From NCBI GenBank assembly GCA_035515475.1, contig DATJBF010000070.1, forward strand, positions 3,228-67,227: a stretch of 64,000 nucleotides of DNA, read 5' to 3'. Source of the DNA: Verrucomicrobiia bacterium. GTDB lineage: Bacteria > Verrucomicrobiota > Verrucomicrobiia > Palsa-1439. The position numbers were made by a program, and so were the translations under genes. The notes beneath the pieces are model-generated. The model was not told the DNA's origin and did no database searches. It saw nothing but the letters and a program-made list of their open reading frames with translations. Every line of letters begins with the position of its first letter. The first letter of the stretch is position 1. This document shows positions 5,780-61,844 of this stretch, one piece after another.

Positions 5780-5787
5780 TTGGTGTC

Positions 5788-8870: not shown

Positions 8871-8880
8871 GCGTGACGGT

Positions 8881-12460: not shown

Positions 12461-12512
12461 CGCCGTGGATTGTAGCGGCTGGGCACGGAAGCGACGAGAG
12501 AAACGTTGCGAG
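12461..12512 (-). repeat. 52-bp conserved spacer with TACAAT (2 of 4)
   Basis: Same length and layout as the other spacers; TACAAT 8 nt before ATG. Confidence 0.8.
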
Positions 12513-14270
12513 CTACCACCACGGCCGCTCGACCCGGTAGATGTAGAGACAATAGCCGAGCACGGCGACGGGTTGACGTTGCCGCAACGGAGCGTACACA
12601 TCCTTGCCGAAGTCGCTGATGTACAGGCCGCGGAGATTGGTGGCGCTGACGGCGACGTAGCCGGGGAGTTCGGGCCAGGAGACCCGGGGGCGATCAAAGA
12701 ATGGGGCGCCGGGCAGCGGGGTATCGTCGATGCCGTAATACGCCGGGTCAGCCGTACCGAAGTAACTCAAGTTGATGTGACGGACGTGATTTTCCGTCAT
12801 CCACCCCTTGAGCAACTTCAGACCCTGGCCCCAATCCAGATTTGAATCGACGAGGTATTCCGCGCCGTATCGTGGACCGCCCACGCTCAGGTTAAAAAAT
12901 GCGAGGCAATACGGATAGATCGCGACGAATTCCGCCAACTGGGCAAGACACAAAATTGCCAGGACAACGCTTCGCCAACGTCTCCGCGTGTCGGACGCAG
13001 GCGGCGGCAGGAGGGCGCTGATGGTCCACCCAGCCACGAGAAGGACAAATGGATAGACCGTCAGGATGTGACGCAGTCCGATGTTCAAATGACCCTCGAT
13101 GGCCGCGCCGAGGTAAACGACGGGTGGCCCCGAGACGAAGAACGCATCGCATCCGCTCGTCTGCTGTCGCGCGACACACAGAATCAAGCCGATGGCGGCC
13201 ATCGCCAGCAACGCGACCGGAGTCTTGATCAGGAACGCCAGCGGAAAGTAATACCACCAACCTCGGCTGCTGAGTTCGCCCAGGAGATACGCCAGCCGCC
13301 GTTGCGCCGTCACCGCCATGGAGGCGAATCCTTGGGCACACGCGTTGGGCAAAAGATGGTGTTCGTCAATCCATTGCATGAAATGAACGAATTGCGGCAT
13401 CCGGCGCTGGGCTACGTCGGTCATCGCAAACCGAGCTTGCTCGATTCCCGCCGTCGTCGGCGCGTAGCGAAAGGCGTAAACGCCCCACAACGCTGCGTAC
13501 GAAACGGTCAGCAACCCGCCGATGGTGACCGCCGCCAGCAGCGCCTTCGACACGCGCCCCGTGATCACTTTCGGATGACCGAGATTGCAGAGCCACGGCA
13601 CGGAATTCAGCGCCCGGAACAACAGGAGTGCGAACAAGACGGGGTACAGCAGCACCGCCGAGTACTTGCTGATTTGCGCCAGCACAAAGAACACGACCAG
13701 CCCAGCCAAGTTCCCGATGGTGATGCGGCGGGCGCTGCGCCAGGCGAAGTAGACCGCGCCGAACATGAAGCAGGTCGCACCCAGATCGGTCGTCACCAAG
13801 CCGGAATGGGCCACCAGATTCGGTTCCGTGCAGTACAGTCCCAGGACGATCGTGGCCGGCCAAAATCCGAACAACTCTCGCGCCCAACTGAAGAGCAGAA
13901 CGCCGAGGAGCACGCCCAACAACGCGATCATGAATCGGGCGCGGAAGAGCAAACGATCCGCGTCGTTGTCCTGGTAAAGGAATTGATGACAGAAACTGTG
14001 CTGATCGCCGGACCACCAGTACGGGCTGTCGGTCGCCAGCTTGATGTCGCGGGTTGCCAGCAGCGGCAGAGCCGCCCACATGCGGACTAGGGGTGGATGT
14101 TCGGGGCCGAAACGGTAGTCGTGCAGTTTCCACGCGATGTAGCCTTCCGTGAGATGCTGCGGCTCATCATAAGTCGCGGACTCCAGGCGGTAACAGCCGA
14201 CGACCAACGCAAGGAAGACCGCGGCAAAAACGGTCAGCACGAGTGCCGTCCGGATCCAGGGCCGATTCAT
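12513..14270 (-). CDS. GT-C fold membrane glycosyltransferase, array copy 3
   Basis: 'ESATYDEPQH', 'GPEHPP', 'LNIGLRH', 'DSNLDWGQ', ends PWW. Confidence 0.8.
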   Translation of the reverse strand: MNRPWIRTALVLTVFAAVFLALVVGCYRLESATYDEPQHLTEGYIAWKLHDYRFGPEHPPLVRMWAALPLLATRDIKLATDSPYWWSGDQHSFCHQFLYQDNDADRLLFRARFMIALLGVLLGVLLFSWARELFGFWPATIVLGLYCTEPNLVAHSGLVTTDLGATCFMFGAVYFAWRSARRITIGNLAGLVVFFVLAQISKYSAVLLYPVLFALLLFRALNSVPWLCNLGHPKVITGRVSKALLAAVTIGGLLTVSYAALWGVYAFRYAPTTAGIEQARFAMTDVAQRRMPQFVHFMQWIDEHHLLPNACAQGFASMAVTAQRRLAYLLGELSSRGWWYYFPLAFLIKTPVALLAMAAIGLILCVARQQTSGCDAFFVSGPPVVYLGAAIEGHLNIGLRHILTVYPFVLLVAGWTISALLPPPASDTRRRWRSVVLAILCLAQLAEFVAIYPYCLAFFNLSVGGPRYGAEYLVDSNLDWGQGLKLLKGWMTENHVRHINLSYFGTADPAYYGIDDTPLPGAPFFDRPRVSWPELPGYVAVSATNLRGLYISDFGKDVYAPLRQRQPVAVLGYCLYIYRVERPWW

Positions 14271-14322
14271 CGCGGCGGATTGTAACGGCTGGGCGCAGGA
14301 GCGACCACAAAAACCTCGTCGG
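14271..14322 (-). repeat. 52-bp conserved spacer with TACAAT (3 of 4)
   Basis: ccgacgaggtttttgtggtcgctcctgcgcccagccgtTACAATccgccgcg-ATG. Confidence 0.8.
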
Positions 14323-16056
14323 CTACCACCATGGCTTTTCGACCCAGTAGACGTAGATGCTGTACCCGAGGACAACAACGGGCGTCCGCGCTTGCAGCGG
14401 TGCGTACCAACTGCTGCCGCCGGTGTAGGAGCACCGGAGATTGGTGGCGCTGACGGCGACGTAGCCGGGCAATCGCGGCGCGGCAATTCGCTCCTGATCG
14501 AAGAATGGCGCCCCGGGGAGGGGAGTATCTTCGATCCCGTAATACGCCGGGTCGGCGTGACCGAAGTAACTCAGATTGATGTGGCGCACGTGGTTCTGCA
14601 TCATCCACTGTTTCAAGAGTTTCAGGTCTTGTCCCCAATCCAGGTTCGAGTCCACGAGGTAATCGGCGCCATGCCGCGGGCCGCCAACGGCGATGTTGAA
14701 AAAGGCGAGGCAGTGCGGGTAGATCGCGACGAATTCCGCCAGTTGGCCGGCGCACAGGACGATCAGGGCGAAGCGTCGCCAAGGGAACCACGATCGGGTT
14801 GCGGTCGGCGCGAGAAGCGCGGTGATTGTCCACCCGGCCCACAAAAGGATGAACGGGTAGATCACCAGAATGTGGCGGAGCCCGATATTCACGTGACTCA
14901 CCACGGCCGTGCCAAAGTAGAAGACCGGCGGCCCGACCATGAATAGCGCATCGGGATGAACCTTGCCCCAGCGGAAAATGCACCATGTCAGGCCGCCAAG
15001 CGACATCACCAACAGGGCTAACGGCGTCTTGATTAGGAACGCCAAGGGGAAGTAATACCACCAGCCTTGAGGGCCGACCTTTCCGCAGAGGTAGGCGGGG
15101 TGCTGTCTGGCGAGCACGGAGGCGAAGCCGTGGATGCTGGCGTTGGGCAACAAATGGTGCTGTTGGATCCATTGGACGAAGCGCATCAGATGCGGTCGAT
15201 GCTCCGCCCCGGCGGTTATGGCAAAGACTCCCGCCTCCGACGGTGCATAGCGGAAATCGTAACCGGCCCAGATGGCACCGTAGGAAAGCGCCAGCAAACC
15301 GCCAACTATTGCCACGACGAGCACCACTTTCGGCCGCCACCCGGTGAGCGGTTTCGGCCGGCCGCTACGCCACGGCCAAGGCGCCGCACTCAGTGCGCGA
15401 ACCAACAGCAAGGCCAACAACACCGGCCCCAAGAGTAGCGCCGAATACTTGCTGACCTGCGCCAGTGCGAAGAACACGGCGAGCCCGATCAAGTTGCCGG
15501 GGCTCAGTTCGCGAGCGGTCCTCCAAGCAAAGTAGACCGCGCCGAAGATAAAGCAGGTCGCGCCCAGATCGGTGGTCACCAGCCCGGAATGGGCCACCAG
15601 ATTTGGTTCCACGCAGTACAGTCCCAGGACGATCGTGGCCGGCCAAAATCCAGACAACTCCCGCGCCCAACTGAAGAGCAAAACGCCGAGGAGCACTCCG
15701 AGCAGCGCAATCATGAATCGCGCCCGAAAGAGCAAGCGGTCCGCGTCGTTGTCCTGGTAGAGGAATTGATGGGCAAACGGATATTCGTCTCCCGCCAGCC
15801 AGCGCGGACTGTTCGTGTTGAACTTGATGTTGGAGGAAGCCAGGACCAATGGCAGCGCGGCCCACATTCGGAGGAAGGGCGGATGTTCGGCACCCATGCG
15901 GTAATCGCCCAGTTTCAGGGCGGCATAGCCCGCCACAAGATGCTCCGGTTCGTCCATGGTGGCCGACTCCAATCGGTAACAGCCGACAACCAACGCCAGG
16001 AATACCGCGGCAAACACGACCAACACGAGTGCGGGGCGAATCCACGGACGATTCAT
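14323..16056 (-). CDS. GT-C fold membrane glycosyltransferase, array copy 2
   Basis: 'ESATMDEPEH', 'GAEHPP', 'VNIGLRH', 'DSNLDWGQ', ends PWW. Confidence 0.8.
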   Translation of the reverse strand: MNRPWIRPALVLVVFAAVFLALVVGCYRLESATMDEPEHLVAGYAALKLGDYRMGAEHPPFLRMWAALPLVLASSNIKFNTNSPRWLAGDEYPFAHQFLYQDNDADRLLFRARFMIALLGVLLGVLLFSWARELSGFWPATIVLGLYCVEPNLVAHSGLVTTDLGATCFIFGAVYFAWRTARELSPGNLIGLAVFFALAQVSKYSALLLGPVLLALLLVRALSAAPWPWRSGRPKPLTGWRPKVVLVVAIVGGLLALSYGAIWAGYDFRYAPSEAGVFAITAGAEHRPHLMRFVQWIQQHHLLPNASIHGFASVLARQHPAYLCGKVGPQGWWYYFPLAFLIKTPLALLVMSLGGLTWCIFRWGKVHPDALFMVGPPVFYFGTAVVSHVNIGLRHILVIYPFILLWAGWTITALLAPTATRSWFPWRRFALIVLCAGQLAEFVAIYPHCLAFFNIAVGGPRHGADYLVDSNLDWGQDLKLLKQWMMQNHVRHINLSYFGHADPAYYGIEDTPLPGAPFFDQERIAAPRLPGYVAVSATNLRCSYTGGSSWYAPLQARTPVVVLGYSIYVYWVEKPWW

Positions 16057-16108
16057 CGCAACGGATTCTAGCGGCTCGCCGCGGCGGCGACCACAAAAAC
16101 CTCGCCGG
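16057..16108 (-). repeat. 52-bp conserved spacer with TAGAAT (4 of 4)
   Basis: ccggcgaggtttttgtggtcgccgccgcggcgagccgcTAGAATccgttgcg-ATG. Confidence 0.8.
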
Positions 16109-17857
16109 CTACCACCACGGCCGGTCGATCCAGTAGACGTAGATGCTATAGCCGAGGACGGCGACCGGTGTTCGCTCCCGCAGCGGCGCGTACAATTTCC
16201 TTTCGGAATCCGTCAGGTAGGCGCCACGGAGATTGGTGGCGCTGATGGCCACGTAACCGGGTAAGCGGATTGCACTGATCGGTTCGGCCTGTAAGTATGA
16301 CTGGCCGGGCAATAGCGTGCAGTTGATTCCGTAGTAGGCCGGGTCGGCCGTGCCGAAGTAACTCAGATTGATGTGATGGATCTGATGCTTCTTCATCCAT
16401 TGGCCCAAGAGCTTCAGACCCTGCCCCCAATCCAGATTTGAGTCCACCAGGTACTCCGAACCATGGCGCGCCCCGCCAACACTTGCGTTGAAGAATGACA
16501 GACAAAACGGGTAGATCATGGCGAACTCGACAACCTGAGCCAAACACAGTGCCGCCAGCACCAGCCTCCGCCAAGCGCGGCGAACTTGCGCTGTTCCTTC
16601 CGACAATAATTCCGCGATGGTCCAGCCGGCCAACAGGAGGATGAACGGGTAAACCGTCAAGACGTGGCGCAGGCCGATGTTCAACTGGCCGGCCATTGCC
16701 GCGCCGAGGTAGAGGGCGGGGGGCACCACGACAAACAGCGTGTCGCGGTTCGTCGTCTTCCACCGCACAACGCACAGGACCAAGCCGGTGAGCGCCAGTA
16801 ACAACTCGGCAATCGGAGTCTTGATCAGGATGGCAATCGGGAAGTAATACCACCACCCTTCGATGGTCGTCTGCCCGAGCAGGTAGGCTTGTCGGTGCCA
16901 CATCCACGCCATCGACAACGCGAATCCTTGGACGCAAGCATTGGGCAACAGACGGTGTTTGTCGATCCATCGCGTGACCTCCGCCAGGCGTGGCCACCGA
17001 TAGGCCTTGGCTTCCATGACGAAGATTCCACTCGCTCGCGGCGAGGGCGTGTATCGAAAACCGTAGGCCGCCCAGACCAGAACGTAGGCGATCACCAGCA
17101 ACCCCCCCAGCGTGACGATTACCGCCAATACTTTCGGCCTGCGTGCCGTAAGGAATCTCGAACGGCCGATGCTCCAAGGCCACGGCTCGTCACGGAGCGC
17201 CCGAATCAAGAGCAAGACCGACAACAGGGGCACCAGCGAGACCGCGGGATACTTGGTGATGGGGGCGAGCGTAAAGAACGTGCCGAATCCGACCAGGTTC
17301 CCAACGCTGAATTGTCTCGCCAATCGCCACGCAAAATAGATGGCGCCGAACATGAAACAGGTTGCGCCCAGGTCGTTCGTCACCAGACCCGAAAACGCCA
17401 CCAGATTCGGCTCGGTGCAATACAACCCGAGGACAATCGCCGCAGGCCAGAACCCGAACAAGTCCCGCGCCCAACAAAAGACCAGGATTCCCAACAGCGT
17501 TCCCAGCAGCGCGATCATGAACCGCGCCCGATACAGCAAACGGTCGGCATCGTTGTCCCGATACAGGAAATTGTGGCCGACCCCCCACATGTCACCCAGC
17601 CGCCAGGACTCGCTGGTGGTGTCCAGATGGACGTTGTCAATCGTCAACAGCGGCAGCGCTGCCCACAGCCACACGAGCGGCGGATGTTCGGGATCGATCC
17701 GATAATCGTGCTGCGTCCAGACGGCATACCCGTCGACCAGATGATGCGGTTCGTCAACCGTAGCGGATTCCCGTGTGTAACTTCCGACGACCAGCGTGAG
17801 GAAAACGACAGCGAAAAAGGACAACACGAGGGTCGTGCGAATCGACGGTCGGTTCAT
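16109..17857 (-). CDS. GT-C fold membrane glycosyltransferase, array copy 1 (most upstream)
   Basis: 'ESATVDEPHH', 'DPEHPP', 'LNIGLRH', 'DSNLDWGQ', ends PWW. Confidence 0.8.
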   Translation of the reverse strand: MNRPSIRTTLVLSFFAVVFLTLVVGSYTRESATVDEPHHLVDGYAVWTQHDYRIDPEHPPLVWLWAALPLLTIDNVHLDTTSESWRLGDMWGVGHNFLYRDNDADRLLYRARFMIALLGTLLGILVFCWARDLFGFWPAAIVLGLYCTEPNLVAFSGLVTNDLGATCFMFGAIYFAWRLARQFSVGNLVGFGTFFTLAPITKYPAVSLVPLLSVLLLIRALRDEPWPWSIGRSRFLTARRPKVLAVIVTLGGLLVIAYVLVWAAYGFRYTPSPRASGIFVMEAKAYRWPRLAEVTRWIDKHRLLPNACVQGFALSMAWMWHRQAYLLGQTTIEGWWYYFPIAILIKTPIAELLLALTGLVLCVVRWKTTNRDTLFVVVPPALYLGAAMAGQLNIGLRHVLTVYPFILLLAGWTIAELLSEGTAQVRRAWRRLVLAALCLAQVVEFAMIYPFCLSFFNASVGGARHGSEYLVDSNLDWGQGLKLLGQWMKKHQIHHINLSYFGTADPAYYGINCTLLPGQSYLQAEPISAIRLPGYVAISATNLRGAYLTDSERKLYAPLRERTPVAVLGYSIYVYWIDRPWW

Positions 17858-17968
17858 CGAAATCGAATTGTAGCGACGGCGAATGACTGCGGCGAGCGAA
17901 ACTTTACGCACCGGGGGAATTGTTTTCCGAGTCTTTGGCCGGCTCGGGCTTCGCTGGTTGCGCCTGGC

Positions 17969-22297: not shown

Positions 22298-23971
22298 CTA
22301 GAACCGGAAGACGTAGTACCGTTCATTGCGTACCGGTCCGAATGCGAACGGGAGCGGACCCCACAGATCCGCGTAGAAACCCGCTGCCGACTCCGGGCGC
22401 ATCGTTGACAGCCACCGACAAACATGCAAATCGACCCACCCGAAGGGCTTCAGATTCTCCAAGGGCAACGCGTTCACGTCGGTGTTGTTCTCGGGCAGTA
22501 CGACAAATGCGCCGGCGGGGATGGTTAAATTGAACAGATCGATCGGCTTGCATCCATAGGATTCCATGTAGTACTGGAATCCCCAGTGTCCCGCGAACCA
22601 CACGGGGCCCTGACCGCCGAATTTCTTGAAAATGGCCCTCGCGGCGGTGCGGGCACTATTTGCGAGCCGGTAATCGGAGTGAGCGGCTGACAGGGCGAGC
22701 ACGGCTGCGGGAATAAGCGCGCCCAGTGCCGTGTATAATCGTCTGGCTCCCGATTGAGAAGACGGGCGGCGACAGGCCACTCGTCGGGCCAACAAGATCG
22801 CCAGCGCGGGCATCATGGGGAGCAGCGCGCGCCCGGTTATCGCCCAATTGAAGTACGTGGCGAACGCAAACGTGCCGATGATCCACAGTGCCAACAGCGC
22901 CGACTCGGCATCTCTGGTTCTTCCCCATTCCGTGACAACAAGGCCAAACAGGCTGGCGCCTCCCATGACGAACAAGCCATACTGCAACGGGATCAACCAG
23001 TGCGCTGGACCGGCGGACGGCAGCGCATGGGTTCCGATTCTGGCGGAGAAATACGCGAGCAGGGCCACCGCCGTCGCGCCCCCAGCCAGGCCGAGCCACG
23101 TTCTGCGAGACCAGAGGAAAGGCGCCAGGAACAACACCGGCGCGCAACAACCTCCCGCGAACGCCAGGCCAATCAACGTCCTCGTCCACACCGACGCGCC
23201 GCCGCTTTGACGAACCCGGGGCGCAAATGCGATCGCGTACAGCAGGACGCCTTTCCCGTACGCCGCGCGCGTGACGCAGTCGTACACGATCGCCGCCGCG
23301 ACGGGGATCAATAGGTAGGCGGCCCACCAGCCGAGCCGTCGCTTCTTGATGGCGGAATACGCCAGCAACAAGCCGGGAAGAACGATGGCGAAATACTTCG
23401 TCAGCAATGCGGCGGCCATCAGGAGACCGGACACCAGAAGCGACCCGTGAGAGTCTCGCTGCATCCCGTCAATCCAGAAGACGATTGCCCAAACCAGGAA
23501 CGCCGTCATCGTTGTGTCGCACATCATCGTGGTGCTGGACACTAGGAAGGCCGGCGTGACCAACACCGTCAGACCGGCGAACATCGGGTTCGAGCCAAGC
23601 TGACGGGCCAGGTAATAGGTGCCCAAGATGGCCGCGATTGCCGGGAGAAGGAGTCCGATGTGCGCCGCCCGTTCGCCCCAGCCGAACCACCGGCCGATCT
23701 GGGCCAGGTAATACGATGCCAACGGCGGATTCTGATCGACCGCGGCCATGGGCATTTGGGTGATATTCCAATTGACGCTGAACCCGTAGGGATCCAGGGG
23801 ATGGGTTTGAATGCGCCGCGCAACCCAGAGGAACAAGGGATCATCGATGTGAACGGCTTTGTCGGAAAACGGCACGAGGCAGGCGACCACCGCAATGATG
23901 AGCAGCCAGAACGGATCGGCTACGATTCTTCGCAGCGGCTTCCAGCACGTCGGTTTCACCGGTGTGGACAT
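22298..23971 (-). CDS. GT-C fold (GT39/ArnT-like) membrane glycosyltransferase, unrelated to the array
   Basis: Polytopic; first-loop 'IDDP', 'NPPL..Y', 'A.LTKY'. Confidence 0.75.
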   Translation of the reverse strand: MSTPVKPTCWKPLRRIVADPFWLLIIAVVACLVPFSDKAVHIDDPLFLWVARRIQTHPLDPYGFSVNWNITQMPMAAVDQNPPLASYYLAQIGRWFGWGERAAHIGLLLPAIAAILGTYYLARQLGSNPMFAGLTVLVTPAFLVSSTTMMCDTTMTAFLVWAIVFWIDGMQRDSHGSLLVSGLLMAAALLTKYFAIVLPGLLLAYSAIKKRRLGWWAAYLLIPVAAAIVYDCVTRAAYGKGVLLYAIAFAPRVRQSGGASVWTRTLIGLAFAGGCCAPVLFLAPFLWSRRTWLGLAGGATAVALLAYFSARIGTHALPSAGPAHWLIPLQYGLFVMGGASLFGLVVTEWGRTRDAESALLALWIIGTFAFATYFNWAITGRALLPMMPALAILLARRVACRRPSSQSGARRLYTALGALIPAAVLALSAAHSDYRLANSARTAARAIFKKFGGQGPVWFAGHWGFQYYMESYGCKPIDLFNLTIPAGAFVVLPENNTDVNALPLENLKPFGWVDLHVCRWLSTMRPESAAGFYADLWGPLPFAFGPVRNERYYVFRF

Positions 23972-50833: not shown

Positions 50834-51844
50834 ATGGCGAGCGAGACACTGCATTTCGACAACGCGCGCCAAGCGCAAGCCCTGTACGCCAGCGAGGCCA
50901 AAAACCTTCGCCTCATCGAAGACCTGCTGAATCTTAAGGTCACCGCTCGCGACGGCTGGATCAGCATGGAGGGGGCGCCCGGCGACATTGAGCGGGCCAA
51001 ATCGCTGTTTCATGAGCTTCAGCAGGCCCTCTCTCGCGGCACAACCATTCGCCGGCAAGAGTTCAGCCGCGCCGTTAGCGCCGTCTCACGCGGTGAGCCG
51101 TTGCGGATGCAGGAACTTCATGAGGGACGCGTTGATGTTTCCACGCGCAAGCGGCCCATTGTTCCGAAAACGCAGGGGCAGAAACGCTACCTCGAAGCGA
51201 TCCGTCAACACGACATCGTCATCGGAATCGGTCCGGCGGGAACGGGCAAGACGTATCTGGCCATGGCCATGGCAGTCAACGCCTTGCGCAGCGACCGGGT
51301 CGGGCGCATCATTCTATGCCGGCCCGCAGTCGAGGCGGGTGAGGCCCTCGGGTTCCTGCCCGGCACGCTCGAGGAGAAAGTCAGTCCGTACCTCCGGCCG
51401 CTCTATGACGCGCTCTACGATATGATGGATCCCGACGAAATCCAGCGCAACATGGAGCGCGGGGTTATCGAGATCGCGCCACTGGCCTACATGCGTGGCC
51501 GCACGCTCAACAACGCGTTCGTCATTCTCGACGAAGCACAGAACGCCACCAGCGAGCAAATGCTGATGTTCCTGACGCGCATGGGATTTGATTCGAAGGT
51601 CGTCATCACGGGTGACATCACGCAGGTGGATCTGCCCGGCCACAAAACCTCGGGTTTGATCGAAGTGCAAGGCATTCTCAAGGAGATTCCGGGCTTGGAG
51701 ATCATTTACTTTAACGAGCACGACGTCGTCCGCCACGAGCTTGTCCAAAAAATCATCACTGCGTACGCAAAATTCAAAGAGGAGCGCGAACGCCGCCGCC
51801 AGGAAGCCGCCGCCAACGGGAACGGCAAGCCACCCGCCGCATGA
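50834..51844 (+). CDS. phoH: PhoH family ATPase
   Basis: 'GPAGTGKTYLA', 'RPAVEAGE.LGFLPG', 'LAYMRGRTL', 'DEAQN', 'GD.TQ.DLP'. Confidence 0.95.
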   Translation: MASETLHFDNARQAQALYASEAKNLRLIEDLLNLKVTARDGWISMEGAPGDIERAKSLFHELQQALSRGTTIRRQEFSRAVSAVSRGEPLRMQELHEGRVDVSTRKRPIVPKTQGQKRYLEAIRQHDIVIGIGPAGTGKTYLAMAMAVNALRSDRVGRIILCRPAVEAGEALGFLPGTLEEKVSPYLRPLYDALYDMMDPDEIQRNMERGVIEIAPLAYMRGRTLNNAFVILDEAQNATSEQMLMFLTRMGFDSKVVITGDITQVDLPGHKTSGLIEVQGILKEIPGLEIIYFNEHDVVRHELVQKIITAYAKFKEERERRRQEAAANGNGKPPAA

Positions 51845-52290
51845 CCGTCGAGGTTCGCAACCGCCGGTCCCGGAAACTAGCAGGTTTCCGGGTTGATACG
51901 CGTCTCCTCCAGGCGCTGGCCACCCAGGCTCTCGAACTTGCCGGCGCTTCTCCGAATTACAGCCTCAGCATCGTGTTGGCGGATGACCCGCAGATCGCCA
52001 CTCTCAACGCTCGGTTCCATCACACTCAAGGCCCAACCGACATTCTGAGTTTCGACTACGGCGATGGTCAAGGTGAGCTGATCATCTCCTTAGACCGTGT
52101 CCGAGCCCAAGCCCGCCGCTTTCGCACGACGCCCGCACGCGAGCTGGCTCTCTATGTCAGCCATGGTGTCCTGCATCTCCACGGTTACGACGACGGCACA
52201 GTGCGCGCCCGTCGCCGCATGCGTGCTGCGGAATGCCGGATCATGAGGTCTTTGGCCTCCGGTATGCTGATACAAAACCTTGTACCCTAG
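51841..52290 (+). CDS. ybeY: rRNA maturation endoribonuclease YbeY
   Basis: 'PTDILSF', 'HG.LHL.GYD'; phoH-ybeY synteny. Confidence 0.9.
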   Translation: MTVEVRNRRSRKLAGFRVDTRLLQALATQALELAGASPNYSLSIVLADDPQIATLNARFHHTQGPTDILSFDYGDGQGELIISLDRVRAQARRFRTTPARELALYVSHGVLHLHGYDDGTVRARRRMRAAECRIMRSLASGMLIQNLVP

Positions 52291-52392: not shown

Positions 52393-54447
52393 ATGTTCAA
52401 GATGAGAAGAGCGATAGCGTGTTCGATTATTGGTTTGTTTGGTCTCTCCGGCCTGACTCCCGCCCCTGCCCAACAAGTCAAGGTGATGCAGTACAACATC
52501 GAGGGCAACCTCGGCAGTCTGTCCGGCAACAGTAGCGCAAGCGCCAAGGCGATCGCTCGGATTGTGAATTACAATCAGCCGGATATCATCACGTTTAACG
52601 AATTGGCCCAGCAATCTCCCATCGCGAATACGGCAGCCGGGATGATCGATTGGGTAACCAATAACCTGACCTACTTCGGGAACAAGACCGGGGTAACCTT
52701 CTGGGTGGATATCGCCACCAACGGGGATGGAAGCGAGATCAACGGGTCCATCAGCCGTTACCCGATCTCCAACGCCAAGACCTACAGCGACGCCGGGGGC
52801 GGGTACGCCAATCTGCGCGGGATGGAGTCGTTTAAGGTCCAACTCAGCGGGACGAATGCACTGCAGATTTTCCACGTTCACCTCAAAGCCAGCAGCACCA
52901 CAACTTCTTGTCCCAGGAAACAGGCCGAGGCCGCGACCGATGCCACCAACATGGTCAATTGGGCTAGCACCAACGTGTTTCCTTACGTCTTCACCGGCGA
53001 CTGCAACGAGTCGGAGGATCCGCGTGACACGAGCGAATGTACGATTACGAGCACCTATCACCCGATTACCACCCTCAAGCAGGTCGGCCATTTGGTTGAG
53101 TACGAACCGACCACGCTCAGTGGCGATTGGGATACATGGAGCACGGGTGATCCCTCTCCCTACTCGAATATTCGCTTCGACCACGTCCTTCCGTCGACCA
53201 ACCGCATCAGCACGACCTATAGCGCCACGGCCGCATGCATCGTGACCGGTTATGTATTCAGCACCATGGACTGGGCGGCGCACGGTCTGTACACCAACGC
53301 CAGTTCGCAGAATCTCGTCAATGACAGCCAGACGGCCTCCGACCACTATTGCGTCCAAGTGACTTATTGGTTTCCGACCAGTCTGACCAATTTCAATGTG
53401 ACTCCGGCCACAACCTTCGCCAGCAGCGGGAATGTGGGAGGCCCATTCAGCCCGTCCAGTCAGCTCTACACCGTGACCAACAGCGACACCATTCCATTGT
53501 TTTGGAGTGTGACGAAGACTTCGAATTGGTTGACGGTCTCGCCGGTGGCGACGAACTTGGATATCGGCGCTCGCATTGCCACCAACGTCACCGCATCGAT
53601 CAACCCCGCGGCCAACTCGCTGTCCGCTGGCGTGTATGTCGACACGATTAACTTCAGCAACACCGTTACGGGCGTCACCTTCACCCGCAGCGTTACTCTC
53701 ACAGTGGGCTCAATCTCTCCCGCAGCGCTCTCGGTCGTGCCTGCAGCCGGTGTCAACCTCTCCGGAGAACAAGGTGGACCGTTCGCGCCGGGATCGCGGG
53801 TGTATTCGCTCACCAACACCGGCGGCAGCGCCTTGAGTTGGACGGCCGGCGTCAGCAATAACTGGCTCGGCGTTTCGGCGGCCGGCGGCTCGCTCGGTGC
53901 CGGTACCAGCACGAATGTCACGGTCAGCACGAACGCGAACATCAACGCATTGGTCGGGGGCCTGTACTCGAACCGCGTCAGCTTTGTCAACGCAACCAAC
54001 GGGAACGGCACGACGAACTTCGTGTGGACGCTGCTGGTGCGCGACGGCATCAGCGACGATTGGCGGCAGCAATACTTTGGACACATCGAACCCGAGGCGT
54101 CCGACCAAAGCCGGGCGCAGGACGATCCGGACGGAGACGGCTGCGACAACCTATGCGAGTTCCAAGCCGGCACAGATCCGACCGACGCCGCTTCGTACTT
54201 CCATATCACTGCGGTCACTGCGCAGGGCAACAATGCCTTGCTGACCTGGGCCGCCGGACTAGGGCGGACTAACGTGGTACAAGCCAGCGCTGGCTTGCCG
54301 AGCGGTTCGTATTCGACCAACTTCAGCGACGTGAGCCCGTGGATCATTCTCCCGGCCGGCAGCGGACCCACCACGACCAACTACCTGCACGCCGGAGCAA
54401 TGACGAATTCTCCCGCTCTTTACTACCGCATCCGACTGCAACAGTAG
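52393..54447 (+). CDS. Secreted EEP (endonuclease/exonuclease/phosphatase) protein with 2 BACON-like domains and DxDGDG/YYRI C-terminal domain
   Basis: Signal peptide; EEP motifs 'QYNI', 'FNE', 'HLK', 'GDCNE', 'FDH', 'SDH'; repeats 'G..GGPF.P.S..Y..TN....L.W'. Confidence 0.8.
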   Translation: MFKMRRAIACSIIGLFGLSGLTPAPAQQVKVMQYNIEGNLGSLSGNSSASAKAIARIVNYNQPDIITFNELAQQSPIANTAAGMIDWVTNNLTYFGNKTGVTFWVDIATNGDGSEINGSISRYPISNAKTYSDAGGGYANLRGMESFKVQLSGTNALQIFHVHLKASSTTTSCPRKQAEAATDATNMVNWASTNVFPYVFTGDCNESEDPRDTSECTITSTYHPITTLKQVGHLVEYEPTTLSGDWDTWSTGDPSPYSNIRFDHVLPSTNRISTTYSATAACIVTGYVFSTMDWAAHGLYTNASSQNLVNDSQTASDHYCVQVTYWFPTSLTNFNVTPATTFASSGNVGGPFSPSSQLYTVTNSDTIPLFWSVTKTSNWLTVSPVATNLDIGARIATNVTASINPAANSLSAGVYVDTINFSNTVTGVTFTRSVTLTVGSISPAALSVVPAAGVNLSGEQGGPFAPGSRVYSLTNTGGSALSWTAGVSNNWLGVSAAGGSLGAGTSTNVTVSTNANINALVGGLYSNRVSFVNATNGNGTTNFVWTLLVRDGISDDWRQQYFGHIEPEASDQSRAQDDPDGDGCDNLCEFQAGTDPTDAASYFHITAVTAQGNNALLTWAAGLGRTNVVQASAGLPSGSYSTNFSDVSPWIILPAGSGPTTTNYLHAGAMTNSPALYYRIRLQQ

Positions 54448-54562
54448 CGGCGTGCCCGTTGACGACACGGCGATGCCCGTTTACCATGACGCTTTCGTGG
54501 ACGAGGCGCGGTAGGATCTGTGGAATATCTACCTTCGACTCCTCGCCAGGACTGAGCCAATT

Positions 54563-56599
54563 GTGAACGCGCGAACGGTGTGCCAGGAGCCGCTTCCTCG
54601 GTCGCGACCATGGATTATCATCCTTGCCGGCGCCGTGATTGTCGGCGCAGCGCTCGTGTCGTACAAGAATTCCTACCGCGTGCCCTTCCTGTTCGACGAC
54701 GTCGAGTCAATTGTGGAAAATCCCACGATCCGTCATTTGTGGCCCATCGGGCCGGTCTTGTCGCCACCCCGAACCAGGGGATTCACCGTTGCGGGCCGGC
54801 CATTGGTGAATGTTTCGCTGGCTGTCAACTACGCGTTGGGCGGCACCGCGGGTTGGGGATATCACGTAGTCAATCTGACGATCCATATCCTCGCGGGTCT
54901 GACGCTGTTTGGAATCGTGAGGCGGACGTTGCACTGCCCGGTGTTGCGCGGACGATTTGCTGGTTCAGCCACCACATTGGCTTTGGCGACCGCAATCTTG
55001 TGGATGCTTCACCCGCTCCAAACCGAGGCGGTCACCTATGTTGTGCAACGGACGGAATCCCTGATGGGGTTGTTTTACCTGTTGACACTGTATTGTTTCC
55101 TTCGCGCGACGGAGTCCCCAAGTCCGCGACTCTGGTTGGCGTGTTCCGTAGTGGCGTGCGCGCTGGGCATGGCGACCAAGGAAGTGGCCGTAACCGCTCC
55201 TCTAATGGTCCTGTTGTATGACCGGACGTTTGTTGGCGGAGAATTTGCCGAGGCATGGAGACGGCGTCGGCGATTCTACGCTTGGCTGGGTTGCACCTGG
55301 TTGATTGTAGGCTGGTTGGCGTTGCGGACAAGCGGCCGGGGTGGCACGGCCGGCTTCGGCACTGAAATCCTTTGGTGGCAATACGCACTGACCCAGTGCT
55401 GGGCGATTAGCCGGTACCTTTGGCTATCGGTTTGGCCGCGGGGATTGGTTTTCGACTACGGGATTCTTTTGTACCGACACGCGGCCGAAGTCATGCCGCA
55501 GATCCTGCTGCTGGCCGGCCTGTTGACCGCCACCGCGGTCGCACTCGTATACCGTCCGCGCCTTGGGTTCTTGGGCGCTTGGTTCTTCGTGATTCTGGCG
55601 CCCAGTTCGAGCTTCTTCCCAGTGGCATCGCAAACGATCGCAGAACACCGCCTGTACCTGCCCCTGGCCGGCGTGGTCACGCTGGTCGTCATGGGCATCC
55701 ACAAACTGCTGGGAAAATCCAGCATGGCGGTTTACGTCGCGCTCGCGGCAGCACTCGGGTTGCTGACGCTGCAGCGCAATCACGACTACCGGAGCAAATG
55801 GGCCATCTGGACCGACACGGTGACCAAATGCCCGAACAACGCGCGCGCCCAGAACAACCTGTGCGACGTTCTGACTACCTTGGGCCGCCCGACCGAAGCC
55901 GTCGCGCATTGCGAACAAGCTTTGCGGAGCGAGCCCGATTACGCCGAGGCGTACAACAATTTGGGCGTCGCCTTTGAGCAAATGGGCAAGCCACAAGAGG
56001 CAGCCAAATATTACGCGCAGGCGCTCCAACTCAAATCGGATTATCCTGAGGCGCACTACAATCTTGGTGTGGCACTGATTGAACTGGGAGATTTGAAAGA
56101 GGCGGTCGGACATTTCCGTCAGGCGCTGCGGCCCAAGCCTGAGGACGTCGATACGCACTACAATCTGGGTGTGGCTCTGCTCGGACTGGGACGGGCTTCG
56201 GAAGCCGCTACCCATTTTGAGAAGGTATTGTTGCAAAAGCCCCATGACGCCGATGCGCACTACAGCCTGGCACTCGCACTTGTCCAACAGAGAAAACTCG
56301 TCGAGGCGACGGAACATTTCGAGCAGACGCTGGAGATCAGACCCGATTTCGCCGATGCCCACAATAATCTGGGGGTGGCACTGCTTCGACAGGGCAAACC
56401 GGCCGAAGCGATTGGACATTTCGAACAAGCCATCCACCTCAGCCCGAATAACGCAGAGGCATACAATAACCTCGGGGCGGCCTTGGAGAAGACAGGCAGG
56501 ATTCGCGAGGCCATTCAATCCTACGAGCAAGCGTTACGGGTCAAGCCCGATGATGCCGCCGCCCAAAGCAATCTGGCTCGGGCCCGGGCTGCTCGGTAA
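54563..56599 (+). CDS. TMTC-like protein: GT-C membrane domain plus C-terminal TPR array
   Basis: First-loop 'FLFDDVESIVENP', 'HPLQTEAV', 'KE.A', 'EHRLYLP', about 8 TPRs ('A.NNLG.A'). Confidence 0.82.
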   Translation: MNARTVCQEPLPRSRPWIIILAGAVIVGAALVSYKNSYRVPFLFDDVESIVENPTIRHLWPIGPVLSPPRTRGFTVAGRPLVNVSLAVNYALGGTAGWGYHVVNLTIHILAGLTLFGIVRRTLHCPVLRGRFAGSATTLALATAILWMLHPLQTEAVTYVVQRTESLMGLFYLLTLYCFLRATESPSPRLWLACSVVACALGMATKEVAVTAPLMVLLYDRTFVGGEFAEAWRRRRRFYAWLGCTWLIVGWLALRTSGRGGTAGFGTEILWWQYALTQCWAISRYLWLSVWPRGLVFDYGILLYRHAAEVMPQILLLAGLLTATAVALVYRPRLGFLGAWFFVILAPSSSFFPVASQTIAEHRLYLPLAGVVTLVVMGIHKLLGKSSMAVYVALAAALGLLTLQRNHDYRSKWAIWTDTVTKCPNNARAQNNLCDVLTTLGRPTEAVAHCEQALRSEPDYAEAYNNLGVAFEQMGKPQEAAKYYAQALQLKSDYPEAHYNLGVALIELGDLKEAVGHFRQALRPKPEDVDTHYNLGVALLGLGRASEAATHFEKVLLQKPHDADAHYSLALALVQQRKLVEATEHFEQTLEIRPDFADAHNNLGVALLRQGKPAEAIGHFEQAIHLSPNNAEAYNNLGAALEKTGRIREAIQSYEQALRVKPDDAAAQSNLARARAAR

Positions 56600-56775
56600 C
56601 TGACCGGGCTTGCGGCATGGAACCACGACGTGGATGCGGTCGCAGTTCTTGCCAACCCAGACTCGTGAATGATTGCTGCGGACAGCGGCGAGCCGCTGCC
56701 TGCACCGCGCCGCATTTGGGCTGCGAGGCAACATTCCAATTGACTTTCATGGGGCATTGCTGTTAAGTAAAAGCG

Positions 56776-59409
56776 GTGCAGCTAACGTTCGTGTGCAATT
56801 CTTCGATGCGCGGGGCCGCGACCTATTTGTTTATCGCTTTCCTCGGTCTTTCCGGGGTGCCCACCGTCCGTGCGCAGCAGATACGAGTCATGCAGTGGAA
56901 CGTGCATGGCACGATCGGGGACATCGCGAGCAACACCACGGACGCAGCCAAGGCGCTCGCCCGCATCGTCAATTACAATCAGCCTGACATCTTGCTGTTC
57001 AACGAGTTGAACGACTCGGACCGGCCGCATGTCACGGCAGCCGTGATTGACTGGGTCACCAACAACGTCTCGTATCTCGGCTCGGTGCCCAGTTCGATCT
57101 TGGGCGCGCCGTCGAACGCGACGTTTTGGGTGGCGATGTCGTCGCGGACGGATGGTTACGAGCGCGACGGCATAGTCAGCCGATATCCGGTATCCAATGA
57201 GGCCGCCTACAACATCGGCCCGCGCGGACTGCACACGCTCCGCGTTCAGCTCGACGGCACGAACGTATTGCAGGTTTTCCAAGCGCATCTCAGGTGCTGC
57301 GCTGATGGGTGCCCCGACAGCTCTTCATGCGACTGCACCAACCGCCAAATCGAAGCCATGGAAGACGCGGGCTCGATCAGTTCATTGATGTCCAGCAGCT
57401 CGCTGCCCTACATATTTGGCGGCGACTGGAACGAGGATGAAGTCACCGGGGATTCGCACGAGTGCACGATCACCAGCTATTATGATCCAATCACGACGAT
57501 AAAAGAGGTGGGCCACCTTGTGGAGTTCATGCCAACCACTCTCAGTGGCAACTGGAGAACCTGGAGTACGGCAGGCACTTCGCCATCCATCCGATTTGAT
57601 TATATTTTTGCGGCGACCAACCGTCTCACGCCGGCCTCGGGATACGTGTTCAGTTCGAAGGACTGGGCCAGCCACGGCTTGTACACGAACGTCAGCCCCC
57701 AAAACCTCGTTGGTGACAGCGGTGCGGCCTCCGACCATTACTGCGTGTTTGTCGATTACGTGTTCCCGACGACCAATGCCGCCCTGTCGGTTTCGCCCGG
57801 CAACGGCTTGTTGAGCAGTGGTGTCGCCGGCGGACCCTTCAGCCCGTCCAACCAGCTTTACACCCTGAGCAACGTCGGCGGTTCGGCGTTGAGTTGGACA
57901 GCCAGCAAGGGGGTGAGTTGGCTGGACCTCTCCGCCACCAGCGGATCACTGGATCCCGGCTCGAACACGACGGTCTTGGTGTCGTTGAACGGGAATGCCA
58001 CCAATCTGGCTGAGGGGAGCTATTCCGACACGGTTTCGTTCAGCAACACAACCAGCGGCGTTGGCAACTCGACCCGCTCGGTCAACCTGACGGTCAATTC
58101 CAGCAACTTTGGATTCTTTGACGATTTCGCCATGTTTGCCCCGACCAATCTGGTCGGGCAAAGCAACTGGGTGCAGGTGAGCATCGCGTCCAGTTTACCG
58201 CTAAAGATTACGAATGGACAGGTGGGGATCCCAGCCAAACAAGCGCCGTTCAACAATCAGGACGCGTACAAGAACTTTGACCAGACTTCGGGCACCACGT
58301 ATTACGGTTTGAACCTGACCGTCACGAATGCGCCGTCCATCGGCGTCGGGACAAACATCACGTATTTTGTCGGGATGTACACTGCCACCAACGCCGCCGG
58401 GTCTGACGTTTACCGCATGGCCGCTGCGGATATGAGCGGCGGCAAATACTCGCTGGGTTTTCGGATCACGGGCAACACCCCGTACTCGTGGGGCACGCAG
58501 ACGCTCGACTACAACACTCCGGTCAAGGTGATTGCCGCGGCGCCCGCAGGCGGCACGGTCGCCTATGTCTATGTCAATCCAACCAGCAGCGATGAGGGAT
58601 CGCAAACGGGTTATCTGACCAACAACGTGAGCGGATCGCCTCCGTCGTCCGTGGGTTCGTTTGTGATCTCACAGAACGCCAGCAGCGCCACCACGAACGA
58701 CGGTCTGACCATCGCCAAGGCCTGCGTGGGGAACAACTTCGCCTCCGTGTACAATTTCCTCAATCCACCGCCGCCGGTGGCCAATTTCAGCGCCACTCCG
58801 ACTGATGGCACCGAACCGTTGATGGTGACGTTTACCGACACGTCAACGGGTTCCATCACCAATCGGTTCTGGAATTTCGGTGACACCGGCACGACCAACG
58901 TCACGACCAATAGCGTGGTGCACACCTACTCCGCGGGCACGTACGACGTCACCCTTATCGTGAGTGGATCGGGCGGCTCGGATACCGACAGCCAGCCGGG
59001 TTATATCGTTGCTCTGACGGAGTTTGAGGCCTGGCAAATCCATTATTTCACCGACGTCAACAACCCGCTGGCGGCGCCGGACGCCGATCCGGATGGCGAC
59101 GGCATGAACAACTCGCAGGAATTCCAAGCCGGTACCGACCCCACCAATGCCGCCTCGTATTTCCATATCACTTCGGTAACGGTGCAGGGCAACAGCTTGG
59201 TCTTGGCGTGGGCGACGGGGTTGGGGAGGACCAACATCGTACAAGCGAGTGCCGGCCTGCCCGGCGGCTCGTATTCGACTAACTTTACCAACGTCAGCTC
59301 GCCGATCATTCTTCCACCGGGCAGCGGAGCCACGGCGACCAACTTCTCCGATTTCGGAGCCGCGACCAATTCGCCCGCTCGATACTACCGGATTCGTCTC
59401 CAACCTTAG
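56776..59409 (+). CDS. Secreted EEP protein with BACON-like, beta-rich and PKD domains and the same C-terminal domain
   Basis: 'QWNV', 'FNE', 'HLR', 'GDWNE', 'FDY', 'SDH'; PKD 'VTFTDTS.G......WNFGD....HTY..G.Y.V.L'; alternative start 56806. Confidence 0.8.
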   Translation: MQLTFVCNSSMRGAATYLFIAFLGLSGVPTVRAQQIRVMQWNVHGTIGDIASNTTDAAKALARIVNYNQPDILLFNELNDSDRPHVTAAVIDWVTNNVSYLGSVPSSILGAPSNATFWVAMSSRTDGYERDGIVSRYPVSNEAAYNIGPRGLHTLRVQLDGTNVLQVFQAHLRCCADGCPDSSSCDCTNRQIEAMEDAGSISSLMSSSSLPYIFGGDWNEDEVTGDSHECTITSYYDPITTIKEVGHLVEFMPTTLSGNWRTWSTAGTSPSIRFDYIFAATNRLTPASGYVFSSKDWASHGLYTNVSPQNLVGDSGAASDHYCVFVDYVFPTTNAALSVSPGNGLLSSGVAGGPFSPSNQLYTLSNVGGSALSWTASKGVSWLDLSATSGSLDPGSNTTVLVSLNGNATNLAEGSYSDTVSFSNTTSGVGNSTRSVNLTVNSSNFGFFDDFAMFAPTNLVGQSNWVQVSIASSLPLKITNGQVGIPAKQAPFNNQDAYKNFDQTSGTTYYGLNLTVTNAPSIGVGTNITYFVGMYTATNAAGSDVYRMAAADMSGGKYSLGFRITGNTPYSWGTQTLDYNTPVKVIAAAPAGGTVAYVYVNPTSSDEGSQTGYLTNNVSGSPPSSVGSFVISQNASSATTNDGLTIAKACVGNNFASVYNFLNPPPPVANFSATPTDGTEPLMVTFTDTSTGSITNRFWNFGDTGTTNVTTNSVVHTYSAGTYDVTLIVSGSGGSDTDSQPGYIVALTEFEAWQIHYFTDVNNPLAAPDADPDGDGMNNSQEFQAGTDPTNAASYFHITSVTVQGNSLVLAWATGLGRTNIVQASAGLPGGSYSTNFTNVSSPIILPPGSGATATNFSDFGAATNSPARYYRIRLQP

Positions 59410-59415
59410 AGCCGG

Positions 59416-59522
59416 TAATCCGTCGGCTTCAGAACTGTAGCGGCGACCTGTGACCGCCGGCTCTGCAACCAGCTGCCTCCCGCGGCGCTCATACTTGACT
59501 CCCGGAGTGGGCCGACGGATTA
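59416..59522. repeat. 107-bp REP/MITE-like element with 12-bp perfect terminal inverted repeats
   Basis: TAATCCGTCGGC (59416-59427) ... GCCGACGGATTA (59511-59522). Confidence 0.6.
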
Positions 59523-59617
59523 GGGCGGCCCCGCGCCGCTCCAGCAAGGTGATACACCATCTCCCCAGGCCGTGCGCGTTTGACAGCCCGGTCATGGGCG
59601 GCTACGATGGCGTGCGC

Positions 59618-60253
59618 ATGAGCGAAAAGTGGAAGGCCATTCGGAACTCATTTGTCGCAGGCCTGTTGGTCGTGATGCCCTTGGCCGCCTCGATTTTGAT
59701 CCTGCTTTCATTGTTCACCTGGGTCACCGATTTCATGCTGCCCGAATCGCTCCGAAAGCAGATGTTGACTCCCCTGTATCGCATCGTCGCGCTGGTGGCG
59801 TTCCTGGTTTTCACTACGGTGGTGGGTTGGGTGACGCGCTTGGTGGTGGGCCGACGGATGATTGCCCTGGGAGAGGCGATCATTGCCCGCGTGCCACTGC
59901 TGAACAAGACGTACATATTCATCAAGGAGATTAGCCACACGCTGTTTTCGGGGCGCAAAACCATGTTCCAACGCGTGGTGCTGGTGGAGTATCCCCGGGC
60001 GGGTGTTTACACGATCGGTTTCGTGACCAGCGAGGCGGTGGGGGAGACCCAAGTGAAGACCCCCGGCCAGGTCATCAACGTGTTTTTTCCCACCACGCCG
60101 AATCCCACCAGCGGATGGTTGGCGCTGGTGCCGCGCAGTCAGGTGATCGATCTCGACATGAGTGTGGCCGACGGGATGCGGTTGATCGTATCCGGCGGCG
60201 CGATCGTTCCGCCGTTTACGCCCAAGACCCTGCCGCCGGCCGATTCCCGGTAG
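59618..60253 (+). CDS. DUF502 membrane protein
   Basis: 'F.AGLLV..PL', 'VLVEYPR.G....GFVT', 'PTTPNPTSG'; promoter TTGACA-N17-TACGAT 9 nt before ATG. Confidence 0.92.
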   Translation: MSEKWKAIRNSFVAGLLVVMPLAASILILLSLFTWVTDFMLPESLRKQMLTPLYRIVALVAFLVFTTVVGWVTRLVVGRRMIALGEAIIARVPLLNKTYIFIKEISHTLFSGRKTMFQRVVLVEYPRAGVYTIGFVTSEAVGETQVKTPGQVINVFFPTTPNPTSGWLALVPRSQVIDLDMSVADGMRLIVSGGAIVPPFTPKTLPPADSR

Positions 60254-60963: not shown

Positions 60964-61752
60964 TTACCCCTTGCGCGGCGGTGGGCAAATGCCATTGGGA
61001 GAACTACGGGCGAACTCAATGAATTCCCTGGCCTCGGCGGTCACAAACGAGCCGTCTTCGGATGCGCGCTTGACAGCTTCGGAGCCGTTCAGGCCGGAGA
61101 GATAAAACAGTTTGAACAGCTTCTTCAGTTCCGCGACCGATGCTACGGGAATTTTGGCGCGGCGCAGGCCCACGAGGTTCAGCGCATGGATCTCGTTGCG
61201 CTCCGCCGCCAGGGTGAACGGCGGCACGTCCATCGACACGCGCGCGTTGCCTGAGAACATGGCCAGCCTCCCGATGTGCGTGAATTGGTGGATGACGACT
61301 CCGCCGGAGATGAACGCGTTGTTGCCGACGTGGGCGTGGCCGGCCACCAGGGCGCAGTTGCAGATGATGACGTGGTTGCCGATGACGCAGTTGTGTCCCA
61401 CGTGCGACAATCCCATGAGATAACAATCGTCTCCGATCACGGTGGCGCTCTCGGGGTCGGTGCCGCGGTGCACCGTGCAATACTCGCGAAAGACGTTGCG
61501 ATGGCCGATGCGCAGGTAGCTGCGGCAGGAGCGGTCGAACTTCAAATCCTGCGGCTCGTGTCCGATCACCGCGCCCATGTGGATTTCGTTGTCGCGACCG
61601 ATTTCCGTGTGGCCGGTGATGTAGGCATTGGCCCAGACCCGTGTTCCCGCGCCGATCTTCACGTGGTCTTCGACGATGGCGTTCGGTCCGACCGCAACAG
61701 TCGAATCAAGCTCCGCCTTCGGGCTGACGATCGCTGTCGGATGAATGGGCAT
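60964..61752 (-). CDS. lpxA: UDP-N-acetylglucosamine acyltransferase
   Basis: 'IHPTA.V', 'G.EPQDLK', 'REYCTVHRGT', 'HVGHNC', 'HQF', 'DVPPF', 'LNLVGL.R'. Confidence 0.94.
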   Translation of the reverse strand: MPIHPTAIVSPKAELDSTVAVGPNAIVEDHVKIGAGTRVWANAYITGHTEIGRDNEIHMGAVIGHEPQDLKFDRSCRSYLRIGHRNVFREYCTVHRGTDPESATVIGDDCYLMGLSHVGHNCVIGNHVIICNCALVAGHAHVGNNAFISGGVVIHQFTHIGRLAMFSGNARVSMDVPPFTLAAERNEIHALNLVGLRRAKIPVASVAELKKLFKLFYLSGLNGSEAVKRASEDGSFVTAEAREFIEFARSSPNGICPPPRKG

Positions 61753-61844
61753 GGCGGGGGCGAGTATAGGCAATCAGCGGCTGATTCGCAAAACAAGAAG
61801 AGGCCGGGCGGTCCCGGCCTCTCAGGTCAGAAAACCCAGCGCAT

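Follow-up and report, generated by a model that had tools for sequence, protein, structure and literature searches.

A putative TMTC-like glycosyltransferase gene between two exported phosphoesterase paralogues of a Verrucomicrobiia bacterium: probably a lineage-specific gene order rather than a dedicated glycosylation module

Introduction

The eukaryotic TMTC1-4 proteins O-mannosylate Ser/Thr residues in the β-sandwich domains of cadherins. They are classified as CAZy GT105 and combine an N-terminal, multi-pass GT-C membrane domain with a C-terminal array of TPRs. Here, we analyze a 64,000-nt stretch of DNA from a Verrucomicrobiia bacterium (contig DATJBF010000070.1; hereafter, the window), in which three neighboring open reading frames (ORFs) on the same strand, genes A, B, and C, encode a protein of this layout (B) between two secreted EEP phosphoesterases (A and C). 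A preliminary description of the locus proposed that B is dedicated to glycosylating A and C and that the three genes form a surface-display system. We find that A, B, and C are new representatives of already known protein types, arranged in an order specific to their lineage. The explanation that we favor, with fair though far from full confidence, is that these are three real genes that do not form a dedicated glycosylation module, and that B is an orthologue within a huge paralogous family of periplasm-facing glycosyltransferases.

Three groups of described glycosyltransferases are close to B. Like TMTC1-4, B has an acidic DD pair in the first extracytoplasmic loop and, as judged by eye, KExxT, ..RP, RxD/E, D(W/Y), and E(H)RxY motifs at equivalent positions. 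B differs from TMTC1-4 in having no DUF1736 match, no SHKSY in motif M2, and no PxxP in motif M6, in that its donor would be a bacterial polyprenyl phosphate rather than dolichyl phosphate, and in belonging to a massively expanded family whose genes are often tandemly arrayed. The protein O-mannosyltransferases of the PMT/POMT family (GT39), including actinobacterial Pmt, share with B the GT-C fold and an acidic pair in loop 1; B, by contrast, lacks their MIR domain, has a C-terminal TPR arm instead, and finds no match at the sequence level in the PDB. ArnT (GT83) belongs, like B, to Pfam PMT_2; it differs in having 13 transmembrane (TM) helices and a small periplasmic domain, in lacking TPRs, and in acting on lipid A. 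Full-length bacterial homologues of TMTCs have been noted as uncharacterized proteins (PMC7801869). We found no characterized bacterial TMTC-like enzyme in the literature searched, in agreement with the expectation in the preliminary description that such proteins have few or no defined substrates.

A and C, in turn, share with secreted EEP phosphoesterases (PF03372), which include nucleases, sphingomyelinase/phospholipase C-like enzymes, and phosphatases, the domain itself and its conserved N, E, D, N, D, and D-H positions. They differ from them in being very divergent and in having BACON, PKD, and unassigned stalks and a lineage-specific C-terminal domain (CTD).

Results

The genes and domains of interest are all on the plus strand and have the following window coordinates:

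52393..54447, +: gene A, secreted EEP phosphoesterase of 684 aa (ORF; Pfam Exo_endo_phos and BACON_2)
54028..54447, +: CTD of A, with its counterpart in C at 59026-59409 (inter-copy identity; 16-copy alignment; profile search)
54563..56599, +: gene B, GT-C membrane domain and TPRs, 678 aa (ORF; Pfam PMT_2 and TPR)
54563..55852, +: N-terminal GT-C membrane domain of B, residues 1-430 (PMT_2, invariant residues, AlphaFold2 [AF2] model)
55853..56599, +: C-terminal TPR superhelix of B, eight helix pairs, residues ~412-677 (TPR_1 and related models; AF2)
56776..59409, +: gene C, secreted EEP phosphoesterase of 877 aa (ORF; Pfam; paralogy with A)

The coordinates of the three ORFs are exactly those of the preliminary description, and its central observation, a GT-C+TPR gene with an "FDD" motif between two paralogous, Ser/Thr/Asn-rich EEP proteins, is confirmed by the ORFs, the Pfam matches, the paralogy, and residue counts. 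Ser, Thr, and Asn together (S+T+N) make up a fraction of 0.31 of A and 0.30 of C versus 0.12 to 0.16 of 11 other proteins of the window, and the richest stretches are the BACON modules (0.35 to 0.43). The A|B and B|C gaps measure 115 and 176 bp, respectively; no terminators were predicted between A, B, and C, and a promoter/terminator scan was uninformative.

Three sets of observations speak against B being dedicated to A and C. First, B is missing from related loci that keep the EEP genes. EEP loci were taken from species genomes and from contigs encoding the closest homologues and were mapped by tblastn and Pfam. In the closest orthologous locus, L098 (PhoH 94%, DUF502 85%, and A 75 to 81% identical), the genes run PhoH-YbeY-A-C'-DUF502-RecO-LpxA, with C' being a C-like gene; no gene separates the two EEP paralogues, and B is absent, with no room for a remnant. 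B is also absent from the more distant syntenic locus L012, in which PhoH-YbeY-EEP is followed by a DUF4139 gene on the minus strand and DUF502-RecO. Second, relatives of B do not accompany relatives of A and C. In a sample of 80 metagenomic loci (905 kb) with B relatives 49 to 61% identical to B, none contained a homologue of the EEP, BACON, "mid" (see below), or PKD parts of A/C, and two held a protein with the shared CTD. A Pfam tally of 113 immediate neighbors revealed no recurrent partner except further TPR proteins. Third, the GT-C+TPR genes that do lie near EEP genes elsewhere are not orthologues of B. L009 has two convergent PMT_2+TPR genes whose products are just 23 to 25% identical to B, and L100 has a gene for an EEP-Big_7-fn3 protein, followed directly by one for a 932-aa multi-pass+TPR protein and a PMT_2+TPR gene whose product is 51% identical to B. 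In a tree, the glycosyltransferase genes near EEP genes in the source locus, L009, and L100 fall into three different lineages, which argues against a co-evolving, dedicated pair. The synteny of TMTC-like genes with BACON/PKD proteins expected from the preliminary description, therefore, largely fails in relatives, the closest of which keeps A-C' without B.

The L100 932-aa protein (3192-5990, +) is of interest in itself. It has approximately ten hydrophobic segments followed by TPRs, its first 475 residues match no Pfam model, and it may represent a second, undescribed family of membrane-domain+TPR proteins.

In the more distant locus L001, the order is a gene for a CTD protein, an A-like gene, the B orthologue, and DUF502-RecO-LpxA; the contig encoding the closest homologue of B (P0002; 69% identity) has a gene fragment, the B orthologue, and DUF502-RecO; and in both P0002 and P0003, the B orthologue lies immediately 5' of DUF502. 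A maximum-likelihood tree unites B, P0002, and P0003 (94/81 support) in a clade whose sister group consists of close paralogues of B (62 to 65% identical); in several assemblies, these paralogues have a stable position in an unrelated aconitase/LplA-RmuC setting. B is, therefore, ancestral at the locus and has been lost or moved in the L098 lineage. The position of B relative to the EEP genes varies between genomes. The A-B-C "sandwich" is lineage-specific and peculiar to the source genome, and adjacency as such links B to DUF502 no less closely than to the EEP genes. We also considered horizontal transfer of B, for which there is no support: its GC content is like that of its neighbors, and its orthologues form one clade at the same locus.

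On this evidence, it is quite unlikely that B is dedicated to its neighbors, with its TPRs recognizing the BACON/PKD stalks of A and C, as a prokaryotic parallel to the O-mannosylation of cadherins by TMTCs. Such a role would be consistent with the TMTC-like architecture, fold, and motifs of B, with A and C being Sec-exported and having BACON modules of 35 to 43% S+T+N, with the arrangement of the three genes on one strand with short gaps (115/176 bp) and no predicted terminators, and with the presence of GT-C+TPR genes close to EEP genes in both L009 and L100. The A-like|B adjacency is also kept in L001, but it comes with the conserved housekeeping flanks and is, therefore, not independent of shared ancestry; the same adjacency logic would link B to DUF502. 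No expression data were found for the locus, and the sequencing runs that contain it are DNA runs of wetland metagenomes, none of them RNA. A specific tie of B to A/C is not supported.

B belongs to a very large family. We detected at least 7,927 relatives of its membrane domain, mostly from Verrucomicrobiota metagenomes, to which annotation pipelines give the names "protein O-mannosyl-transferase" or "TPR protein," and 33 of the 80 sampled loci are tandem arrays of two to six family copies. Pfam places the membrane domain in PMT_2 (PF13231; residues 81-226; 27.8 bits versus a cut-off of 26.1); this membership is marginal, since just 8 of 20 members of the family have E values of ≤1. At the sequence level, nothing was found in the PDB for the membrane domain with either a single sequence or a profile. 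A full-length AF2 model of B (pLDDT 86.8, pTM 0.80) returned TPR proteins alone in Foldseek. When the membrane domain (residues 1-432) was modeled separately (pTM 0.81, pLDDT 72.9), 20 of the 21 best Foldseek matches in the PDB were GT-C enzymes (probability 0.97 to 1.0), comprising Pmt4, ArnT, AglB, PglB, STT3, EmbB, AftB, and Pmt1/2; the matches are weak in E value (~1e-3; TM score 0.4 to 0.47), and the fold library was one without a TMTC structure. The best match was Chaetomium Pmt4 (9i5k), Pmt1-Pmt2 (6p25) also matched, and ArnT came second with 18 to 20% identity over ~445 columns. The models thus support a GT-C fold for the membrane domain, as the preliminary description had anticipated.

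The conservation pattern is consistent with an active glycosyltransferase. The FDD motif comprises residues 44-46, with the DD pair (residues 45-46) at 54695-54700 of the window. In an alignment of 53 sequences (B and 52 homologues at 50 to 69% identity), D45, R79, P80, R163, E165, K206, E207, Y299, E361, R363, and Y365 are invariant, and D46 and D298 are conserved in ≥90%. Of the TMTC motifs M1 to M7 (PMC7801869, Table 4), M1 to M5 and M7 have been rationalized by Eisenhaber and co-workers as a site for a metal and dolichyl-phosphate-mannose. We compared B with these motif positions by eye, without alignment to TMTC sequences. In this comparison, M1 (DD) and M4 (KEVxxT) are present, M2 is represented by ..RP alone, M3 reads RxE for RxD, M5 reads DY for DW, M7 reads EHRxY for ERxxY, and M6 (PxxP) is not recognizable, B having P-x5-P instead. 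The TMTC-specific Pfam domain DUF1736 (PF08409), which in TMTCs is the loop joining TM7 to TM8, scored 10.3 bits (E 0.69) versus a cut-off of 27; sub-threshold matches occur at the corresponding place in 10 of 20 B relatives, the best with an E value of 0.011. The assignment to the TMTCs made in the preliminary description, therefore, holds for the GT-C+TPR layout and, as judged by eye, for most motifs and does not hold for DUF1736. Altogether, the models support the view that B is structurally a TMTC-like enzyme of the GT-C+TPR type.

These data also bear on two other explanations of B. In one, B would be a catalytically dead scaffold or chaperone, a TPR protein for which a degenerate GT-C domain serves as the anchor, as might be suggested by a PMT_2 score barely above threshold (27.8 versus 26.1 bits) and a DUF1736 score below it. 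We regard this explanation as extremely unlikely, because the invariance of the putative catalytic and phosphate-binding residues across the 53 homologues points to purifying selection on an active site. In the other, the B family would modify not proteins but a lipid or glycan acceptor (lipid A or lipopolysaccharide core, peptidoglycan, or exopolysaccharide), with the TPR arm scaffolding envelope machinery. ArnT (5f15/5ezm) as the second-best fold match, the matches to Emb/AftB, the membership in PMT_2 as the ArnT-type Pfam family, the resemblance of the tandem paralogue arrays to glycan-diversification loci, and the absence of a protein substrate for any bacterial member from the literature searched are all in line with this idea. 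However, Pmt4, the best fold match, O-mannosylates proteins; the motif set and the GT-C+TPR architecture are closest to the TMTCs, whose acceptors are proteins; polypeptides are the typical ligands of TPR arms; and no glycan-synthesis genes recur among the 113 neighbors. A lipid or glycan acceptor is, therefore, unlikely.

In the C-terminal arm of B, TPR_1 and related Pfam models match with E values down to 1e-62 and define seven to eight TPRs, and in the AF2 model this part forms eight helix pairs with pLDDT >90. Its sidedness depends on the last hydrophobic stretch of the membrane domain. A basic G(R/K)(R/K)S loop, which has insertions of 10 to 25 residues in several homologues, interrupts this stretch, suggesting two TM segments and, thus, an odd number of passes, as in TMTCs, and a TPR arm that is probably periplasmic. 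Both AF2 models, full-length and membrane domain, contain one continuous, high-confidence helix of 42 residues at this place (residues 367-408; window 55661-55786).

A and C have the following domain layouts (residue numbers):

A: signal peptide, ~1-26; EEP domain, 29-330; two BACON_2 Ig-like modules, 331-545; TSP3-like motif and CTD, 546-684
C: EEP domain, 35-335; BACON, 336-442; "mid" domain, 443-660; PKD, 661-750; TSP3 and CTD, 751-877

Sec-type signal peptides can be read from the sequence at the start of both proteins, and the true start of C may be the ATG at 56806. Both proteins exceed the Pfam cut-off of 24.5 bits for the EEP domain (PF03372), with Exo_endo_phos scores of 29 bits for A and 54.7 bits for C. 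In A, two BACON_2 stretches score 43.7 bits; C matches PKD_4 (41.6 bits), PKD, and TSP3_bac, and its BACON_2 score of 21.6 bits is below threshold, yet this module is 46 to 53% identical to the BACON modules of A. The sole NCBIfam match was a TSP3-type match to Amuc_1099. With 47% identity over 452 aa of the EEP+BACON part (E 4e-125), A and C are, as judged from this alignment, clear paralogues. The EEP positions N35, E70, D203, N205, D263, D317, and H318, which we take to be catalytic from knowledge of the motifs, do not vary among A, C, and the L001 protein in an alignment, and A and C are, therefore, probably active metal-dependent phosphoesterases. Their EEP domain has no relative in the PDB by sequence search, and its family is small, with ~100 relatives, some of them fused to or beside PF04185 phosphoesterases. 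Extracellular hydrolysis of phosphodiesters or phospholipids fits this association, and A and C may perhaps serve phosphorus scavenging in wetland soil.

The stalk of C (BACON-mid-PKD-CTD) is 41% identical over 563 aa to that of a protein of L008 that bears a different, unassigned head, and the Ig-like stalks of A/C thus appear to be modular and swappable. The mid domain (~218 aa; C residues 443-660; window 58102-58755) is kept at 33 to 48% identity in stalks of L008, L009, L011, L098, and L102 and has no Pfam, NCBIfam, or PDB match. In a separate count of potential glycosylation sites, C contains 22 N-x-S/T sequons compared to 14.6 ± 3.2 in composition-matched shuffles (z ~2.3), and A contains 15 compared to 11.8 ± 2.9; the Bacteroidota D(S/T)(A/I/L/V/M/T) motif was not enriched.

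A and C share a widespread CTD, whose two copies are 53% identical in one comparison and 64 to 65% identical in another. In an alignment of 16 copies, it comprises ~130 aa with a TSP3-like DPDGDG motif, a β-rich block, and a terminal YYRIRL, with the consensus WxxxYF..DPDGDGxxNxxEFLAGTDPTN..ITSV..TW..GRTNVLQ..YYRIRL. A profile search identified 804 cluster representatives at E ≤ 1e-30, and most matches end exactly at the C terminus of host proteins of 136 to 2,124 aa, which have very different heads (EEP, GH28+Ig, PF04185 phosphoesterase, or unassigned). The CTD is also present in L001, L008, L009, L010, L011, L057, L098, L099, L101, and L102. Because it ends hundreds of diverse proteins, the CTD behaves like a C-terminal sorting or anchoring domain, and it is a candidate for such a domain of the Verrucomicrobiota. 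Surface display, which had been assigned to a module around B, is better ascribed to the CTD, the better candidate of the two. In L099 (1251-11372), three consecutive genes encode exported proteins. Two of these bear the CTD, one being unassigned and 1,177 aa long and the other a PF04185 phosphoesterase-TIG protein, and the third is an EEP-BACON-PKD-Big_7 protein; the genes may constitute a cluster for exported phosphoesterases.

The three genes are embedded in conserved flanks:

50834..52290, +: upstream flank with PhoH (50834-51844) and YbeY (51841-52290); the same flank lies 5' of EEP genes in L098, L010, L012, and L013
59450..61773, mixed strands: downstream flank with DUF502 (59450-60253, +; by Pfam), RecO (ends 60903, +), and an LpxA-like gene (60964-61773, -)

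The DUF502-RecO-LpxA flank also lies 3' of the B orthologue in L001 and 3' of C' in L098. An assembly chimera as the origin of the A-B-C order was ruled out: one 7,402-nt contig of the wetland metagenome run X1 covers both the A|B and the B|C junctions, and an independent contig of a second run, X2, covers the B|C junction.

B is one of seven PMT_2 genes in the window, the others being a tandem array of five GT-C genes without TPRs (8881-17911, -) and a singleton (22298-23971, -); tblastn detected no similarity of these six to B. With seven PMT_2 genes in 64 kb, a GT-C gene as a neighbor is not rare in the source genome.

Discussion

The explanation that we prefer for the locus is as follows. 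B belongs, as one orthologue, to a very large family of the Verrucomicrobiota that arose by ancient duplications and consists of inner-membrane GT-C proteins fused to a TPR arm. At a site facing the periplasm, which is predicted to consist of the DD loop, K206/E207, D298, and R363, B would accept a sugar from a polyprenyl-phosphate donor and would pass it to an acceptor docked by a TPR superhelix that is likely periplasmic. The acceptors would most likely be exported proteins. A and C, in turn, are Sec-exported phosphoesterases on swappable Ig-like stalks, ending in a CTD that probably sorts or anchors them. Because both pass through the periplasm, A and C could be among the clients of B. B would have come to lie between them by a local change in gene order, its ancestral link to DUF502 being at least as close.

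Several observations weigh against this explanation. The B gene is kept at the locus in three genomes despite rearrangement. Moreover, a GT-C+TPR gene lies at most two genes from an EEP/CTD gene in three of eight independent contexts (the source locus, L009, and L100). The other five (L008, L011, L099, L101, and L102) have none nearby, and the remaining ~110 kb of EEP-anchored sequence contains none. The chance of such proximity is P ~0.004 to 0.08 by a rough binomial estimate that varies with the assumed genome-wide density of GT-C+TPR genes, and the numbers are too small to test. Proximity in three of eight contexts could reflect a real but loose client relationship. In addition, moderately S/T/N-rich proteins are slightly more frequent among the immediate neighbors of B-family members at a post hoc threshold of ≥0.22 (14/123 versus 8/216; P 0.007), while no such excess is seen at the ≥0.25 that A and C reach (5/123 versus 5/216). 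These S/T/N-rich neighbors are a mixed, exported set that includes an outer-membrane barrel, an arabinofuranosidase, a GH28 protein with Ig domains, an S1/P1 nuclease, and a PEP-CTERM protein. Finally, if the single helix at residues 367-408 in the AF2 models is true, it would place the TPRs of B in the cytoplasm.

As a single case, L062 has an S1/P1 nuclease gene (8776-9843, +; 25% S+T+N) directly 5' of a B-family GT-C+TPR gene, so that here, too, an exported nuclease adjoins a member of the family.

A broader possibility is that the Verrucomicrobiota have a periplasmic protein O-glycosylation network in which dozens of TMTC-like paralogues act on the Ig-like (BACON/PKD/Big/fn3) stalks of CTD-bearing exported enzymes. 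We consider such a network unlikely. If it were true, the loose proximity in three of eight contexts would be its genomic trace, and the network would be a bacterial counterpart of domain-specific cadherin O-mannosylation.

For the A-B-C locus, gene adjacency is unreliable evidence for an enzyme-client pair, and the CTD is the likelier determinant of surface display. Full-length bacterial homologues of the TMTCs are abundant, with thousands of genes, none of them with a known substrate. A real enzyme-client pair would, therefore, open a large unexplored glycosylation system and provide a tractable model for domain-specific O-mannosylation.

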